64,000 bases of DNA from Moniliella sp. 'wahieum'. Its lineage: Eukaryota. The position numbers and the translations under genes are program-made. The notes beneath the pieces are model-generated. The model did no database searches and was not told the origin of the DNA. It worked only from the letters and a program-made list of their open reading frames with translations. The stretch's first letter is position 1, and every line of letters begins with the position of its first letter. This document shows, in pieces, positions 4,321 to 59,701 of this stretch. Location of the stretch: positions 186,001-250,000 of the forward strand of contig RSEE01000038.1 of the NCBI GenBank assembly GCA_003971905.1, read 5' to 3'.

Positions 4321-4926
4321 TTCGGTACTACTGCCCACCCTTCCCTTTGTTGTTTCACTATACTAGCAGTATATCATGTCTGGTACCTTCACGTGTACAC
4401 TCTGTGCCATAGCGAACATAGTACAAGTGAAGATATCGTCGAAGAATCGGCCTGTCGGATCCTGTTAAACAAGGGAACTAGTCGATCACTAAATGCAGAG
4501 TCCACCTATATTTCGTCGTGTGGTCTCGGTTTCCAGTGTACTTTTAGCAACCGTTTTGGGGCCAAAAAACAAAGTCATTGTCGACCGGGAAAAGAGATAG
4601 AGGGTAATAGGGAACAGCAGCAGGGATAGTATAGCGTCCACGATGATTAATGGATGGCGCGGTTTTTGTCAAGCTTGGGATTCAGTTCAAACAAGAATCC
4701 AGTTGTTGCACCTCTCTTTCTATTTGTACACTGCAGGAAAGAAAAGGTGTAGAAAAACAGAGAGCAGGCATTTGGTGGTGTATTGCTTTTGCACATGAGC
4801 CGCAGCAGAGGCTCGAGAATATTCTTTTGTCCGCCAAAACGGAATATTGGAAGGAATGAGGCGGATGGACCCGGGCTTGAGCTACCGGCGCTACTACACC
4901 AGCGTGGCACTGCAAAAGGAAACGAA

Positions 4927-32185: not shown

Positions 32186-33299
32186 GTACGAAGTGCCGTA
32201 TGTATGCACCTTTTCTATCTTGGACTTCCCCATCGGCTGTACTTGGCCTTTGAAGCTTGATGATTGATGCCTGATGCATGATGTGCATGGTGCTCGATGG
32301 TGGGGTTCGTTGGCCTACGGCCTGACAATGCTACGTGATGCTTACGATTTACCTAGTAACTGGCCATACCTGTCTATGCGACTGAAGAAAGGCTGGAACA
32401 GGTTCTCGCGGTAGGATTACTTACATGGTGCCATTTGGGAGGGAACCAGACGGTAGTCGATGAGCTGATCGGACTAAGCCAAGCAAGAAACCGGCGTGGC
32501 ATGCACAGCCATTATTGCCAGAGTTGAACGTGAAAAAAGTAGCTACCGTCGGTCTTGATCCGACGACCTGTGGGTCACACGACAACTTATGAGCCCACCG
32601 CTCTTCCGCCTGAGCTAGGTAGCTGCTTGGAAGGAATTATTTTGTCTGCAGAGGCCCAAGGGGAAGTCGACTCTCAGGACTGAGGTATTCGTGGACCATT
32701 TCCCCTCTCACAGCCATCCTTAACCCCAACCTCTCTCAACCACAATATTCTTCGGGGTAAACGACTAGAAGCACTGCCACTACAGTGGGAATGGGCGCGG
32801 CTAGGGTGATGGTCACTGGGAAAGAAGGGATCTTGCGTGGGTCCGTCGCTGTGGTACTGGCCAAGGGATCCTCATGAGTACTGAACTGAGTCCTCTAGGT
32901 CCTCTTCCTCACTTGCACGAACGAGAAAAAGAACGCATCCGTGTCGTGGTACAACAACAATTCGCGACATTATAGGTATGCGTAAGGAATTGAAGAAACA
33001 AACAGTGACCTCCCCAGGCAAGTCATATAAGGGGTGGGTGGGGGAAAGTATAGGCACAAAAAGATGAGGATGGGGGGTGGACGGAACAGCAAAACAGCGA
33101 AGAGATGCGATCAACCAACGACAAGTCGATGAAAGGAGGAGGAATTGGGGTAACACGCGGTAGTAGTACTGATGTACTGAAGGAGACAGGGAGAGTGGGG
33201 CTCTGGCATCGGGATATGCCGGTAAAATAGTGATGTGGAGAAACAAAGGACCGACCGGGATGCATGATGTATGGTGCCTTGTTTCACGGACGTCAAGGG

Positions 33300-39663: not shown

Positions 39664-42254
39664 ATGGACCACGTGCCCCCCTCCGCCCCGCCCTTTGGTG
39701 TGCTGGGCATGTCGACCACTCTCCCTCCGCATCCGCAGCGGCATCCTTCGACCTCGTCCGCGGCCTCGGGCAGTTCCCGCGGCGGGCCTAGCAGTGCCTC
39801 CAACACCAAACACCGCTGGACCGATGCCGAGACGCAAGCGTTGGTGGACGGATGCAACAAGCACGGTGTCGGCCAATGGAAAAAGATTTGGAAGACCCGC
39901 AACTGCGCGCGCACTTTGACCACCGGTCTGCTGGCGACCTCAAGGACCGCTTCCGCACCTACTTTCCCGATGCGTACCACGAACTTTACCCGAATGCCAA
40001 AACGCATCATGGACACAAAGTCCGTGGCCGCAACGCCCAAGGCCGATCGATTTTTGAGCGTGGCCTGTTCCGCCCCAAAAGGGCGTTCTCGTCCGAAGAG
40101 ACACAAGCATTGTACGATGGGTGGAAAGAACATGGTTCCCATTGGAGCAAGATTGCTCGATTGCCACCGTTTGAAGGGATGCGAACTGCGACCGACTTGC
40201 GCGATCGGTTTCGAAATGCCTTTCCACAGGAATACGAACAGGCTGGGTTTAAGGCGCGTACACGGCAGCGGCGACGCGGTGCGGCTCGCTCCGAGGCCCC
40301 CCCCCCTCCCTGGACCAACAGGGCGATGCGGCGGCAGCCAGCTTGGTAGCTGCCTTTCCTCCTGCTCCGCCTTCGTACTCCGACTCGGGATCGGGATGGA
40401 TCTCCTCCTCGTCCGTGTCGGGTGCGTCGGTGGGAGGATCGGACTGGGCGGCAGTACTGTCGGATGCGTCGGGCGACTCGCACTTGGCTGCCCTGGCCGG
40501 GTCCGAACCTGGGTCCCTTTCCCACGAGGCGACACGCGCGTTGCAAGGTCTTTCGCTCCAGCCGCCTGCAGCGGGCTTGTACCCCGCCAAGGTTGATGTC
40601 GACTCGGCTGGTGGGGAATGGTTCTCGGCTTTGTCCGATGTGGCCCCGAGTGGAAGTGGAAGTGCGGGCTTGGGGCCCTCGGGGCCTAGTCGTTCCTCTG
40701 GGAGCAACAAACGACGAAAACCGCATACACTTCGTTCGGGCGGCTCACCCATGGGATCCGTCGATGCGCCGCCGGCGGGTGGATTCCCGTGGCTAAGCGA
40801 GATGCAGATGCAGATTGCCATGCAGCTCCAAGCGCAACTCCTCGATGGCTTGGATGACGCAGGCGAGGAGGAACAACATGGATCGGGAGAAGAGGAGGAT
40901 GACGAGTACGACTCGGATGGTGAGGATGACGAGGCTTGGCACCAGCGTTCTTCCCAAGCGCACGAATTGCGCACGCGCACCCTCACTATGCAAGGCGAGG
41001 GTGATCGCAAGTTGGCGCGACACGCGACGGCCCACTCGCTCGAACGGGCGGATACCTTCCTGCCCTCGGTTCCTACCGTCGTGCAGCCTCCCCCGGCCAG
41101 TCCTTCCAGGAGACCCAACCCGCTCGGTCCTGTACGCGCGGGGGAGACAACCGATGGCACCGATGCCGGAGGAGGAGCGAGCTGGAGCATGGGCATGCGA
41201 ATGGACGAAACGATGCTCGACTTTTTCGCAAGAATGGCGGCTGAGATGGGACTTACCCCTACACAGTTTGCTGCGACGTGGGCTGACGCCCACCATGCCG
41301 ACGCTGACCCAGGCTCCGACGCAGGGGAGGTGGTAAGACACGATGCGTTGGACCTTGGTCTTGCCCGAGCCGGGCTGGGCCAACCGGTGTCCAGCCAACC
41401 AATGCCTAGCCAACCAGTATTCGAGCCTGGACCATCAATACCTGCACCTGACGTCGTTTCTGCCGTGCCTGGGCCACCTGGCGTGCCAGTCGCTGGGGAC
41501 GACGAAGCACTGGTTGCTTGGATCGAACGGATCCAAGGAAAGGACGAGATGGACGCGGTAGGAGCAACACTGGCCGCGGTGGGATCGCACGTTGCCCCAG
41601 AAGGCAGCTCAGCGCATCCGGCTTCGCAAGCGGACGCTGTTCTCCCTACCAATCCAGACTGGCTGACGCACATGTCCTCGCTACCCCCATGGGAGGTACA
41701 GAGATGGTACCATCGCCGCCGTCGGCGGGAGAGACGAGGTCTCCTGGGTCGGGTTCAGGCTCGGGGTCGGTGGCCGCAGCACCGCCTTCGTCACATGCGT
41801 CGCCTTATCCTCCCCATAACCACTCTCACTCTCACTCTCACTCCCTACTCCTTCTCACTCTCACTCTCACTCTCATTCCCACTCCCACTCCCACTCCCCC
41901 TTTCCCCCGCACACGTCGCCCTACGCCACTTCTCCATTTACCCCGGGCGCTTCACACGTCTCCCCGCCTGCATCGGTGCCTGAGGCCCAGCTGGTAGCGG
42001 CTGCCGCTGCCCAAGCGCAAGTGCAAGCGCAAGTGCAAGCCCACGCGCAAGCCCAAGCTCAAGCCCAAGCCCAAGCACAAGCCCAGGCCCAGGCCCAAGC
42101 ACAAGCCCAGGCCCAAGCTCAAGCTCAAGCCCAAGCCCAAGCCCAGGCCCAAGCACAGATACATGCGCAGATGCAGGTGCCGATGGGCTGGGCGGGCGAC
42201 CTGCTGTGGACTCCGTTTGATGGATCGGCGCCGTCGGATGGCCATCCCGGCTGA
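39664..42254 (+). CDS. TAY1: Tay1/Teb1-like double-Myb telomeric dsDNA-binding protein with long low-complexity C-terminus; frameshifted
   Basis: Myb1 [53 protein letters not shown]; Myb2 [40 protein letters not shown]. Confidence 0.82.
41820..41897 (+). repeat. (CACTCT/CACTCC)n hexamer microsatellite inside the Myb gene
   Basis: cactctcactctcactct...cactcccactcccactccc. Confidence 0.8.
42009..42158 (+). repeat. Coding (CAAGCC)-type hexamer repeat encoding a poly(Gln-Ala) tract
   Basis: [18 protein letters not shown]... in ORF 41976-42254, with synonymous codon variation. Confidence 0.85.
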
Positions 42255-48546: not shown

Positions 48547-50514
48547 TCAGGTTGGTAGCCCGCTTGAGAGGAAAGCCAAGCGGGGTCTTGTTGACCCCAT
48601 CCATCCCTTTCCTTCCGCTACCGGTGTCTCGTGCGGGGACGACTGACGCGGGTGTGGCGGCATGGGTCGTGCGCGCTTCAAAGGTGGTTCCGCGCTGGCC
48701 GCGTTGGCCGTGCTGCCAAACGGTGGCTGTCCAGCCACACCAGACGAAGCAAGGGATTGCATCGCATGCGCCATCTCTGGTGCGATCAGTTCGAGGTTCG
48801 GGTCCGTGGGCGGCAGGGCAAAGCCCATGTCACAGGAGGTTTGGCTTGCTGTGCCGTTCGTCCCGCCACAGTAGGGTCGAATGGTGGAGAGCGGGTGTAG
48901 GAGCTAACAAAGGGGAAATGAAAGAGGCGAGAGTGGGGTTAGGCACAGGCACTAGACCAACAGATGGGTAAAGTACAGCGCAGGGGGTGGGGGATAACTA
49001 AAGACGTACGTTGGGACTTAATGTTGTTATTGACATCGGTCACTGTGCCAGCTCCAGCTCCAGCTCCAGGTGGTCGCAACACTCCACTGCGCACCATCAC
49101 ATCCGATACACGACGGATGCACCCGACCAGCACGCGCAACATCTGGAACATATCCTCAATATCGCGTACCGAGCTAACCCCGCCTTCTTCCGCATTGAGC
49201 AGCTCGGAATGCGCGTGGACAGCTTGCATCCGCTCTTGCACGCGCGCGACCCAGGCAGCGTCAAATTGGTTTTGGGGCGGGATATGGCCAAGGAGGAGAA
49301 GACACATGTACCCTGGTAGCCGTTTGGGGCGAAGGTCCTGAAGGTTGAGGAGGAGCAGGGGCAGAGGGGAGCGCGTTGAGGTTGGCCGACTTGGATTCGG
49401 CCTCGGGCGCTGCTTGGTCAGACGGCTTGGGCGAGTCGGGCTGGGTAGGGTAGCGCAAAAACTCGACTTGGAGGGTGCGGAAGATACGAAAGAGCAACGT
49501 TTGGATCGTCAGTTCCACCGGCCGCGTGATGGTCTCAATGCGAGAAAAGATGTTGCCCATCTCTTGCGGTGGGGTGGATTGTGGCGCGGCCGGTTGCGAC
49601 ACGGTATACCTCGTATCTTGGATCGTAGGCAACACGGGTGAATGAGGTGTGGTGGTGAAACGGAGGACGAGGCACGGTCGTCGAGCGTCGCACGATTCAT
49701 CATCTCGGATACGGACTCTTGTCGTGATCCAGCGCGAGACCGGGGCTTGTGGTACAACCCCGTCCCGGTAGATGTCGGTTGGAGGTACCGCTGCAGTAAA
49801 CCGGGACAGGTCCGAAGGTGAGGGAAGGACGGGGTGTGGGTACGAAGAGCGCCGCACCGCTGGGGGCGAGGTGGGTGCGAGAGGCAGACGAAGAAGGTGC
49901 TGGTCATGGAGAACGTGTTACCGCGTTTGCGGTTCGGGTGCAAAGTTGTCGTCGCCGTAGTGCGGGGGACGGCATTGTAAATGTTCCGCAACGAAGGAGG
50001 GGGAACAATAGAGGTGGTGGCACTGCGCGGGCGGGTGCGAGTGGGCGCAAGGGCTGGGCCGGAAGGGACATTGTCGCGCAACGAGTAGGCAGCAAGACTG
50101 GGCGTGGCAAATTTGTCGCCCATTCGACGGGGGAGGCCAGCGGCGGAGAAGGGGGGGAGGTGTGATGGCTTGTGCTCATGGGGATGATGGGGTGGTAGCG
50201 GCAGCGTCAATGCTGGTGGCGGTGGGAGTGGCGGGGAAGACAAAGGGAGAGCAAGAAGAGAAAGATGTAGAAAAGCAGGGGGTACTTACTCGGCAAAATA
50301 ATCAATTGTCGCTGGACAAACAGGCCATTTCTTAGGCCAGTCTGCCCCTGGCACAGGGGCAGTGTGGTAACCCCCTGTGTCTTGCACCTCCCCAGCTGCG
50401 GGCTGTTCCGGAGGAGGGGGCGGGGGCAACAGAGGCGCTGGTGTCTGTCTCGGGTTTGGCTGACCTACCGGCCGCAGGAACATACTCCAAGGAACCGACA
50501 GGCACTGCTGCCAT
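48547..50514 (-). CDS. Hypothetical Pro/Ser-rich protein (multi-exon, frameshifted)
   Basis: Chain of overlapping minus-strand ORFs; GTAAGT donor at ~50289; helical segment VARVQERMQAVHAHSELLNAEEGGVSSVRDIEDMFQMLRVLVGCIRRV; no family recognised. Confidence 0.45.
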
Positions 50515-51250
50515 GGCCAGCGCGATGTGGAAGAATGGGTTGATCGCATCACTAGGGTATAATAGCAGGGTGAGTCCGGTGAGTATTGAGTACTGGCTGT
50601 TGGGCATTGTGAGTATATGGAGTACTGCGAGAGTACACTCAGCTCAGTACACCGAGTTCAGTACACTGAGTGGGTAAACATTAAAGCGCCTCGGACGGCG
50701 ACACAAATCGCGAACCTCCACCCTATGCCAACCTCTGTCGATGTCCTTGAACTTTGGGGTGAAGCCGGTGAAGCTTGAAGCGTGTGAAGTCACGGAAGCT
50801 TGTGAAGAGCTTGAAGGCATAAAGCTCCTCCCGAAGTCCCGCGATTATACGAACTGTTACATGTTACTTGAAGCTTGATACATCAAGCTTCAAGCTTCAA
50901 GGGCAGTAGCGCCGTCACGGGTCAGCGCGTCAGCCTCAGTCAACACTATAGCCACTGTGACTATAGCCAGCCAACCCCCGCAATCAGTGCCTCAGCATCC
51001 GCATCAGCACTGAGATTGAGAGATCTGAGATCTGAGTGAGAGCTTCCTCAGTATCAGCGCAACTGTGGCTCTGTGCATATCTGCTGGGCGTCTCAGCGCG
51101 TCAGCCCTCCTGACACAGTCTCCGCCATCGCCCATTCTCCCATTGAATATTGAATATTGACCGATTGACCCCATCTCCATCCATCGACGATCCCTGTCTT
51201 CCGCTGAAAACCTCATCTCAAGCTTCAAAGCTTCAAGCTTCAACACGTTC

Positions 51251-51490
51251 TGTTGACTGTGATCCTCTGGCTCCCAGTCGGTAGACCAGGTTCGCCTCGG
51301 TTCCATCGGCTTCCACGCTGACGTCCCTGCGTGTCACTGTCCCTGTGCCCTGCACTCTCTCCTGTGTGACTCACTGTCCCTGTGCCTAGTCCAGCCTCCT
51401 ATATAGATGCCTCTGTACCCAGACCCAACTCTGGCTCCAATCCATCACCTTCTCCTCATCCTTCTGCCCGTCCGGCTCCCTAGGCCAACA
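51251..51490 (+). repeat. 5' LTR (240 bp)
   Basis: Identical by eye to the 3' LTR except one extra C (ccacgCtgacg vs ccacgtgacg); contains TATATAG. Confidence 0.93.
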
Positions 51491-51610
51491 GAGCTACAAT
51501 CTGATCCCCCCGGAAGGGGAGCGCTCTTCAAGCAAGCCCACCCCCAAGCCTACAAGCCCAAGCTAAGCCGCCAAGCCCACAAGACACACCGTCCTCCCGC
51601 CCAACAACAC

Positions 51611-51690
51611 CACCGCCACAATCGGCACCTTACCGCCACAATCGGCATACTACCGCCACAATCGGCATACTACCGCCACAATCGGCACAC
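51611..51690 (+). repeat. 4 x 20-bp tandem repeat inside the LTR element
   Basis: (Y)ACCGCCACAATCGGCA(YMY) x4: caccgccacaatcggcacct, taccgccacaatcggcatac x2, taccgccacaatcggcacac. Confidence 0.9.
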
Positions 51691-52410
51691 TCGTCCCCCA
51701 CAGATGGGGCAATGATTTTTAGGGACAACACACGACGGAACAAAACGTGTCGGGTATCGTCAACGAGACGAAATTCCTCCAACGACAAAACGGCGCAGGC
51801 GAATCGCAGAAAGCGGGGGTGGCTGCTCATCAAGTGCCCCACCCACGGCTACACGCCCCGGATTGCCAATTCATCCGGGGCACCTGGGGAAAGGATGGGG
51901 GGGGGTGGTCACCCAACTTCTTCCACTCCTCTTTTTCAACAACAAAGAGAACCCAAACAGATCAAGACGGTTGACGCATAGCGCCCGTTCATTTCCCATG
52001 CCCAATGGACCCCACTGGCACCAGGCATGCGGAACCAAACAACTACCAAACGCATCCAATTTTGATGCCAAACGACCTTGGACCGCATTTACTCCAAGTT
52101 TCCAATTTTCTTTCACTACACCTATAACTGGTGCTTTTTACTTTTGCCCACCAAATCGCTTCGGGGCGCAACCCCTACTACTTTTACTTCTAAGACTTCT
52201 ACAAGCATCTGGCGGTCGCACAATACACCAACCACAAGCGCTCGGCTCGTTCAGGTGTCATCCTGGACAGCGGGGGTGTAGGCCAGTCGTGTGGCCATGC
52301 ACAACTCCAGGCCATTCGTCCCGGTTGCCACTCAAGTCCTCCCCTCTCTACATCCACTGGCAGGAGCTCATCCCACAACCGATGTCTCCGGGTTCCCTGG
52401 CCAGCGGGGG

Positions 52411-52649
52411 TGTTGACTGTGATCCTCTGGCTCCCAGTCGGTAGACCAGGTTCGCCTCGGTTCCATCGGCTTCCACGTGACGTCCCTGCGTGTCACTGTC
52501 CCTGTGCCCTGCACTCTCTCCTGTGTGACTCACTGTCCCTGTGCCTAGTCCAGCCTCCTATATAGATGCCTCTGTACCCAGACCCAACTCTGGCTCCAAT
52601 CCATCACCTTCTCCTCATCCTTCTGCCCGTCCGGCTCCCTAGGCCAACA
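52411..52649 (+). repeat. 3' LTR (239 bp)
   Basis: Matches 51251-51490; followed by the TSD CGTTC. Confidence 0.93.
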
Positions 52650-53537
52650 CGTTCACTATCACTCCCCCTGCGTATACCACTCATTCCCCACACCCATTGG
52701 ATGGGCCACTAACCACTGCCGCTTTGCAGCATCCCCAAAACTTTTCTACTTTTCGAAACGGGCGAGTCTCTGAGGCTGAAGTGATCGGTGACGTTGAGGG
52801 TGACGTGTGACGTGTGAGGCCTCCTAGGCCTCAGGGGCAGATCAGGTTGATTGATTCACAGAGTATATTCACAGAAGGAGGACCGAGGACCAGAGTCGTG
52901 CGATTCAATTTTTCTTACAGGCTGCACCCAGCCAGTCACATGTGACGCGTGACGTCGCGCATCATGTCAACGTTGTCAACATTGCCAAAGACAAGCTGAC
53001 CGGCCCCTGCTGTGACCGCTGACCTTGAAGCTTGACATCTGCTGACCGGACTGACCGTACTGAGCTGAGCCACTGTCCCTCGTCGACGACAGGCAGCACC
53101 AGGCAACATTCCGCGCCCCCCGGTTCCTCCCGGCCACTGCCTCGAGATGGGTCCATGCGGCCATTGCCTAACATTGCGTAACATGTAACAGGCAACACCC
53201 GGCTCATCTGGTTTTCCTGTTCCCTGTCCTCCACGGCGTCAGAGCCCGCAACAAAAATATGCGCCCGCCACGTGAGACAGACCGCACTCGTGCAACATTG
53301 GGTTAGAGTCACATGTCACACGTCAGTCACATGTGGGGGCGGCGGTCACGTGCTCGACGTGCTCGGGTGAAATTGCAAGAGCTGTGGCGGGTGGATAGCT
53401 GGCAGGCGGGCAGGTGGGTACCCTGCTGGCTGGCGCCGCGGGCGCAGCAGCAGCTGCCGATCGGCGGGCCAGAGGCGCGGCGCCAGTGGGCGATCCTTGT
53501 CCCGCAGGATGCGTCTCGCCACCACCACCACCTTCGA

Positions 53538-59043: not shown

Positions 59044-59701
59044 ATGGGCCTTTTCGACTCTGTACGTTACTACCTCCGTGGCCCTTTACCTTCCTTTCCA
59101 TCCGCATTCATTTCTTCCTTCCTTGCCTCCCATCGGTTTCCCTAACCATTTCCTCTTCTCTCTTTTTCTCTTTAAGGCTAAGCAATTCGCCGAGAACAAG
59201 GCTGAGCAGCAGTTTGGTGGTGGCAACAACAACCAATCTGGGGCTTTGGCGGCAACTCGGGCTCTGACTCGTACGGCTCGGGCAACCAGGGCGGTGACTC
59301 GTTCGGTTCGGGCAACCAGTCGGTGGCGGCTTCGGCGGCAACTCCGGCTCGGACTCGTACGGCTCCAACGACCAGTCTGGCGGCTTCGGCGGCAACTCGG
59401 GCGGCGACTCGTACGGCTCGGGCAACCAGTCCGGTGGCGGCTTTGGCGGCAACTCGGGCGGTGACTCGTACGGCAACGACCAGTCGGCGGCGGCTTCGGC
59501 GGCAACTCGGGCGGTGACCCTACGGCTCGGGCAACCAGGGCGGTGACTCGTTCGGGGGCAACCAGTCGGGTGGCGGCTTCGGCGGCATCGGGCGGTGACT
59601 CGTACGGCAACGACCAGTCCGGCGGCTTCGGCGGCAACTCGGGCGGCGACTCGTACGGCTCGGGCAACCAGGGCGGCTACGGTGGCAACGGTGGCTTCTA
59701 A
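59044..59701 (+). CDS. Small Gly/Ser/Asn-rich tandem-repeat protein (GGFGGNSGGDSYGSGNQS repeats); intron ~59062-59176; frameshifted
   Basis: MGLFDS|AKQFAENKAEQQFGGGNNNQSG, then repeated ggcggcttcggcggcaactcgggcggYgactcgtacggc units. Confidence 0.8.

Follow-up and report, generated by a model that had tools for sequence, protein, structure and literature searches.

How would reverse transcription of an LTR retrotransposon be primed if the sequence that follows its 5′ LTR resembles the middle of a tRNA and not the complement of a tRNA 3′ end? This question is raised by a 1,399-bp element at 51251-52649 of the 64,000-nucleotide stretch of DNA that we analysed (64 kb; hereafter the window). By structure, the element is an LTR retrotransposon, with direct terminal repeats, TG..CA ends and a target-site duplication (TSD). 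The 5′ LTR (240 bp, TGTTGAC...GGCCAACA; 51251..51490, + strand) and the 3′ LTR (239 bp; 52411..52649, + strand) constitute the one LTR pair that a repeat search found in the whole window. Both run from TGTTGAC to CCAACA, and a repeat comparison gives 99.6% identity between them, with one single-base indel. The same five bases, CGTTC, adjoin the LTRs on the outside as the left (51246..51250, + strand) and right (52650..52654, + strand) copies of the TSD. A divergence of no more than this indel indicates a young copy, whose primer site is probably still in working form; judged from these features, the element is a recent insertion.

The 920-bp internal part appears to have no gag/pol coding capacity, as none of its five longest frames has a Pfam match at E up to 1. 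An internal part without a protein-like frame, together with the LTR pair, marks the element as a non-autonomous LTR retrotransposon, and at 1,399 bp it lies above the size range of TRIMs (<1,000 bp; Kojima, 2024). Immediately 5′ of the 3′ LTR stands a G/purine-rich tract (CCAGCGGGGG, 52401-52410), as LTR elements have at this place; it belongs to a polypurine-tract region that adjoins the LTR (CTGGCCAGCGGGGG; 52397..52410, + strand). A second, internal copy of this region (CCTGGaCAGCGGGGGTGTaG versus CCTGGcCAGCGGGGGTGTtG; 52262..52279, + strand) agrees with 52396-52413 at 18 of 20 bases and lies 134 bp upstream of the real tract; it could serve as an internal site for plus-strand priming or be what is left of a former LTR border. 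Within the 5′ LTR, we read TATATAG (51400..51406, + strand) as a candidate TATA box, which would place the transcript start near 51425-51435. Palindromic repeats of the AAGCTTCAAGCTT type occur upstream of the insertion site, at 50760-50900 and 51215-51245.

The window is eukaryotic and encodes ISWI-type ATPase, Nop58 and HSF domains. The Nop58 frame points to basidiomycetes, and its nearest named matches are mostly from Ustilaginomycotina (Exobasidium, Sympodiomycopsis, Tilletia, Violaceomyces), at 54-69% identity; a close relative did not turn up. Two low-complexity coding regions were also seen: a 6-base (GCNCAR), Ala-Gln-rich repeat with periods of 12 and 18 bases at 41985-42182, in a frame upstream of the HSF-type DNA-binding frame, and about seven imperfect 54-57-bp repeats at 59215-59676, which encode a Gly/Ser/Tyr/Asn-rich stretch of the GGFGGNSGGDSYG type. 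The sole host tRNA gene in the window is that of the initiator tRNA-Met (32539-32624, - strand), with A1:U72, three G:C anticodon-stem pairs, A54 and the arm GTGGG CTCATAA CCCAC. Its anticodon loop is followed by a 12-base intron; according to Kojima (2024; PMC10886601), intron-bearing genes encode the tRNAs, initiator tRNA-Met among them, that serve as half-primers in rust fungi.

The 14-mer GAGCTACAATCTGA (51491..51504, + strand) begins at the first base 3′ of the 5′ LTR, and no TGG occurs in the 25 bases following the site; half-tRNA sites likewise adjoin the LTR and lack a TGG start. With up to 2 mismatches allowed, it is found a single time in the 64-kb window, where 0.22 matches are expected by chance. 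Read together with the LTR-terminal CA, its reverse complement is TCAGA TTGTAGC TCTG, an arm with four Watson-Crick stem pairs and a 7-base loop that carries T at loop position 2 (U33) and G at position 6 (R37). Of the 9,016 CA dinucleotides that the two strands of the window contain, 3 pass a test for this anticodon-arm shape, the primer site counted among them, which makes a chance origin of the shape unlikely. The register follows from a eukaryote-type tRNA-His gene (locus L058), in which the same arm starts at base 27. The primer 3′ end would accordingly correspond to tRNA base 40, and the candidate site is complementary to tRNA positions 27-40, namely the anticodon 5′ stem, the loop and the first two bases of the 3′ stem. 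The original prediction had described a site without TGG directly after the 5′ LTR, complementary to an anticodon arm that ends at tRNA position 40, and each of these points is borne out.

In Rfam, no family matches the site, and the whole element gives weak, chance-level matches only. The pattern CAGAGCTACAATCTGA occurs at 17 loci in viral contigs, a count similar to a rough chance estimate, and none of these loci has LTR context or a polypurine tract. When the arm and the site were sought as strings in the literature, the one paper returned was bacterial and unrelated.

Relatives of the element were found in metagenomes. Three metagenome runs from three studies (X1, X2 and X3) share words with it, each to a small share, and no RNA run was listed. 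Contigs from all three runs include pieces of the same family (95-99% identity). Run X3 further contains a contig of 5,089 bp whose matches to the element are confined to two places, both without differences, on the same strand and about 4.8 kb apart. At the first, contig bases 160-177 equal 51487-51504, that is, AACA and the entire 14-mer; at the second, contig bases 4998-5018 equal 52397-52417, which comprise the polypurine region and TGTTGAC. The neighbouring letters of the contig (...CTAGGCCTGT before AACA and CACTAGTGG... after TGTTGAC) resemble diverged LTR ends. Two exact, collinear matches at both LTR junctions are the pattern expected of an autonomous-sized relative with common cis signals, and we infer that the contig is such a relative, sharing with the element only its cis-acting replication signals; by a rough estimate, the probability that both matches arose by chance would be negligible. 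A comparison with an autonomous partner had been proposed as a check on the site; the autonomous-sized contig has an identical 14-mer and polypurine tract next to an otherwise unlike LTR body. A contig of run X1 that covers 51361-51511 has two differences, one at 51414 and the other maybe near the contig end that bears the site, and we do not count it as evidence for an identical site. In a 143-base contig of the same run, LTR base 113 is joined to LTR base 1 (51251-51363 and 52411-52440), which may be due to LTR rearrangement or tandem LTRs in that other sample, or else to misassembly.

These matches bear on whether the 14-mer has a priming role at all. The element might instead be a dead relic, or the hairpin might serve, for example, packaging, with the likeness of the 14-mer to a tRNA arm due to chance, and the presence of one element copy in the window would fit this. 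However, the near-identical LTRs and the intact TSD point to recent transposition, the 14-mer and the polypurine tract are the sole stretches common to the element and its 5,089-bp relative, as expected of cis-acting signals, and the arm shape is shared by just 3 of the 9,016 sites tested. A 14-mer without a priming role is therefore improbable in our judgement. Half-tRNA priming, by whichever tRNA species, is the probable function of the site as far as sequence comparison can tell.

A primer might also come from the element's own transcript. In self-priming of the Tf1 type, the transcript start folds back on the site and is cut to form the primer; TGGCTC at 51432-51437, about 32 bases past the TATA-like box, can indeed pair with GAGCTA at 51491-51496. 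Yet this run amounts to 6 pairs only, one of them G:U, as compared with 11 pairs in Tf1. The best duplex between R-U5 and the site reaches -8.8 kcal/mol, and 294 of 500 shuffled sites do equally well or better. With a best run of 6 pairs and a duplex no better than those of shuffled sites, we rejected Tf1-type self-priming as very improbable.

Two further candidates were rejected. A half of the initiator tRNA-Met would pair poorly, the host initiator arm giving a predicted -10.6 kcal/mol at the site versus -21.7 kcal/mol for the tRNA-His arm. Membership in Helenus, whose LTRs are tRNA-derived and carry box A and box B, was considered because of what the 5′ LTR contains: TGGCTCCCAGTCGGTAGA at 51268-51303 is similar to a tRNA D-arm/box A, and two GGTTC motifs come after it. 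The motifs TGGCT (51268-72), TCGG and GGTTC (51289-93) leave box A and box B just 8 bases apart, which is too close. No tRNA model match was obtained for the LTR at E up to 10, nor any ARAGORN call, and the LTR is thus probably not tRNA-derived.

Which tRNA would supply the half? The arm read from the site is one base away from the tRNA-His arm TCAGA-TTGTGGC-TCTGA, and the difference would give a G:U pair at anticodon base 36. The cost of this pair is small, as the predicted duplex energy is -21.7 kcal/mol for the site with the tRNA-His arm and -22.0 kcal/mol with a perfect complement, a difference of 0.3 kcal/mol. A pattern in which anticodon base 36 could be G or A, and which left room for an intron of 0-30 bases, matched at least 118 loci in metagenome contigs. 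The arm TCAGATTGTGGCTCTG[AG] is uninterrupted in 117 of the 118 matches listed, the remaining one being a chance match, and ARAGORN calls the genes that bear this arm tRNA-His(GTG). Most of the tRNA-His genes among the matches listed are bacterial in type: they encode G-1 and end in CCACCC. One of the 117 (locus L058, among the matches listed) bears the marks of a eukaryotic nuclear gene, namely A73, a G-1 that is not encoded and a T-run downstream; its arm lies at bases 27-40. Across loci L018-L135, the tRNA-His genes that bear the arm TCAGA-TTGTGGC-TCTGA vary widely in their acceptor and T arms: the matches listed give 77 distinct strings, of which a few are merged records of more than one gene, and the G+C content of the contigs is 16-65%. 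Many bacterial tRNA-His thus conserve this arm strongly. Two points weigh against tRNA-His as the donor: among the matches listed, just one gene of the 117 looks eukaryotic, and the tRNA-His arms of yeast, human and plant have a stem different from TCAGA/TCTGA.

A second feature of the element relates to the same arm. Downstream of the site, at 51610..51690 (+ strand), lie four tandem 20-bp units, each with a copy of the 9-mer GCCACAATC; it complements GAUUGUGGC (tRNA-His arm, positions 30-38) without a mismatch. The copies start at 51615, 51635, 51655 and 51675 on the element's sense strand (+), and the sole other copy in the window starts at 49577 (- strand). The four copies represent one tandem event and may be due to chance, the probability estimated post hoc for this exact 9-mer in 920 bases being about 0.004. 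In the copy from run X3, the fourth 20-bp unit has A in place of its initial G, and there are three base differences in the spacer that precedes it.

On these points, the lead toward tRNA-His has gained substance: TCAGA-TTGTGGC-TCTG[AG] occurs widely as the arm of real tRNA-His genes (117 of 118 among the matches listed), the single G:U costs 0.3 kcal/mol, and the internal repeats do carry the perfect GTG complement, four times over. A tRNA-His(GUG) half in particular is a tentative assignment, for which the odds fall somewhat short of even.

Read literally, the site would call for the same mechanism with another tRNA, whose arm is exactly UCAGA-UUGUAGC-UCUGA, that is, a tRNA-Tyr(GUA) that forms 14 Watson-Crick pairs. 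The element and the diverged 5,089-bp relative both have T opposite anticodon position 36, and the site including this T is identical in the two, as expected if the primer has A36. The plus strand normally copies the primer. Copying of a tRNA-His primer should therefore turn the mismatched T into C over time, and its persistence means either that the primer really has A36, as would a tRNA-Tyr(GUA) type with an unusual loop, or that copying halts at a modified G37 before base 36 is reached; for a tRNA-His primer, such a halt would have to be assumed. A further point in favour of tRNA-Tyr is that anticodon-loop priming by tRNA-Tyr-GTA, with several origins, is reported for basidiomycete Copia elements and Helenus TRIMs by Kojima (2024; PMC10886601). 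Moreover, a phage contig (L009) has the arm TCAGATTGTAGCTCTGA next to the T-arm-like GGTTCGAATCC, so that such an arm can exist. The sequence in question, at 4345-4370 of the contig end, is a truncated tRNA-like gene with anticodon GTA beside called tRNA-Gly and tRNA-Thr genes.

Several observations speak against tRNA-Tyr. The contig end truncates the L009 gene, and neither ARAGORN nor the Rfam tRNA model calls it; GTA appears in 0 of 118 metagenome loci among the matches listed. A loop of the form TTGTnGC is of the tRNA-His/Asp type. The Tyr-type sites of rust fungi (gatttacagtctcg) imply a CTGTAAA loop and a CGAGA/CAAGA stem, and the present site matches that arm at only 9 of 14 bases. Yeast tRNA-Tyr has the same loop and stem that these rust sites imply. 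A primer of the Tyr(GUA) type is, in our estimate, somewhat unlikely, without being far-fetched. Hence the prediction of a cleaved tRNA-His or tRNA-Tyr stands as far as a site for a tRNA cut in its anticodon stem is concerned, as supported by shape, register and the shared 14-mer, while between its two species tRNA-His keeps the tentative status given above and the Tyr-type the lower one.

The proximity to a known arm also bears on a primer of another kind, either a different host small RNA or tRNA region that folds like an anticodon arm, or a tRNA-like RNA from a repeat family. Repeat-borne tRNA-like genes do exist in fungi, some of them predicted as tRNA-His (Kojima, 2024; PMC10886601). However, the arm shape is rare (3 of 9,016 sites), no Rfam family matches the site, and since the arm is one base from that of a real tRNA-His, an unrelated RNA is an unneeded assumption. 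We regard such a primer as quite unlikely.

Returning to half-tRNA priming, we propose that minus-strand synthesis of this young, non-coding LTR retrotransposon, which would be mobilised in trans, is primed at 51491-51504. That the primer is a tRNA fragment, where it is cut and from which tRNA species it derives are all things we infer from the site. The primer would not be a tRNA 3′ end but the 5′ portion left when a mature cytoplasmic tRNA is cleaved within its anticodon stem, behind position 40. Its bases 27-40 would pair with the 14-base site, and reverse transcriptase would then extend it from base 40 into U5; the G-run 5′ of the 3′ LTR would prime the plus strand, and integration would produce the 5-bp duplication. 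With either anticodon, the primer would read UCAGAUUGU(G/A)GCUC at bases 27-40. The likeliest donor would be tRNA-His(GUG), with the arm UCAGA-UUGUGGC-UCUGA, the sequence UCAGAUUGUGGCUC at bases 27-40, and a pairing of 14 bases with one G:U at anticodon base 36. A joint reading would make the family the first LTR family primed by a 5′ tRNA-His half, with the G:U at base 36 conserved because plus-strand copying stops at modified G37, and with the four internal complements acting as extra primer-capture sites. Taken as a whole, this conjunction is unlikely. The contact between the anticodon and the A-rich loop in HIV-1 is comparable to the proposed extra capture of the tRNA.

To our knowledge, initiator tRNA-Met (copia, Ty5) was for a long time the one tRNA on record as a half-tRNA primer. 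Halves of tRNA-Arg, Ile, Tyr and Asp/Asn have been added by later surveys, and a further class would widen this picture and show that the choice of the tRNA half is evolutionarily labile. With anticodon-loop priming published for basidiomycetes in 2024, the site described here is best seen as a new primer-site class of a known mechanism, as judged by its sequence. The original prediction had called either primer choice uncommon. This no longer holds for the mechanism and the tRNA-Tyr option, both of which are already in print for basidiomycetes (Kojima, 2024; PMC10886601), but a tRNA-His half would be new: within the literature searched, we found no tRNA-His half-tRNA primer site in print. If tRNA-His is the true donor, this would be the first known case of wobble pairing by the anticodon itself, and 5′ tRNA-His halves would be tied to retroelement replication. 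LTR annotation tools that check tRNA 3′ ends only will score elements of this kind as having no primer site.

Among known systems, the self-priming Tf1/sushi elements are alike in having no TGG site, whereas the complementarity between transcript 5′ end and site is absent here. Candida LTR elements have sites that match internal regions of tRNA-Arg(UCU) and tRNA-iMet, as listed in a Candida review; they too are fungal and primed by an internal tRNA region, but their host is an ascomycete yeast and their tRNAs are others. In plants, Neumann et al (2019; PMC6317226) found half-tRNA sites in Ty1/copia only, for 1/2 tRNA-Ile in the Bianca lineage and for 1/2 tRNA-Met in the Osser, Bryco and Gymco-II lineages, and the tRNA-Ile case pairs via inosine 34, which is non-Watson-Crick at an anticodon base (PMC6317226). 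The half-tRNA site is common to these lineages and the present element, whereas hosts and tRNAs differ and the wobble would here be a G:U at base 36. The Drosophila copia element has a "half-tRNA" primer, and yeast Ty5 starts from an internal cleavage of tRNA-iMet, both according to a review. As in copia and Ty5, the cut would fall in the anticodon arm of the tRNA, and a site without TGG adjoins the LTR; unlike there, the tRNA would not be initiator Met.

The closest parallels are found in basidiomycetes, where Kojima (2024; PMC10886601) describes anticodon-loop priming of Copia elements and TRIMs by tRNA-Tyr, Ile, Asp/Asn and iMet. Internal parts of rust-fungus elements start with ggttatgagccca, gatttacagtctcg, cattatcagtacgg and cgattaacagtcgaa in the published consensus set (Kojima, 2024; PMC10886601), and the reverse complements of these starts end at tRNA base 40, one class at 41, compared with 40 for the present site. 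The element differs from the rust elements in that GCTACAATC is absent from the supplementary archive of that study, consensus file included (PMC10886601), and from their Tyr-type members in its loop, TTGTAGC here and CTGTAAA there. Unlike Helenus, it has no detected tRNA-like sequence in its LTR and exceeds the 1,000-bp limit with its 1,399 bp, and the named protein matches of the window point to Ustilaginomycotina and not to the rusts (Pucciniales). With the rust Copia elements and Helenus TRIMs (e.g. Copia-50_PHord and the Helenus families starting gatttacagtctcg), it has in common a basidiomycete host, the form of a short non-coding LTR element, LTRs of the type TGTTGA...ACA, a 5-bp TSD, a G-run polypurine tract, and a primer site that adjoins the LTR, ends at tRNA base 40 and is shared with an autonomous-sized partner.
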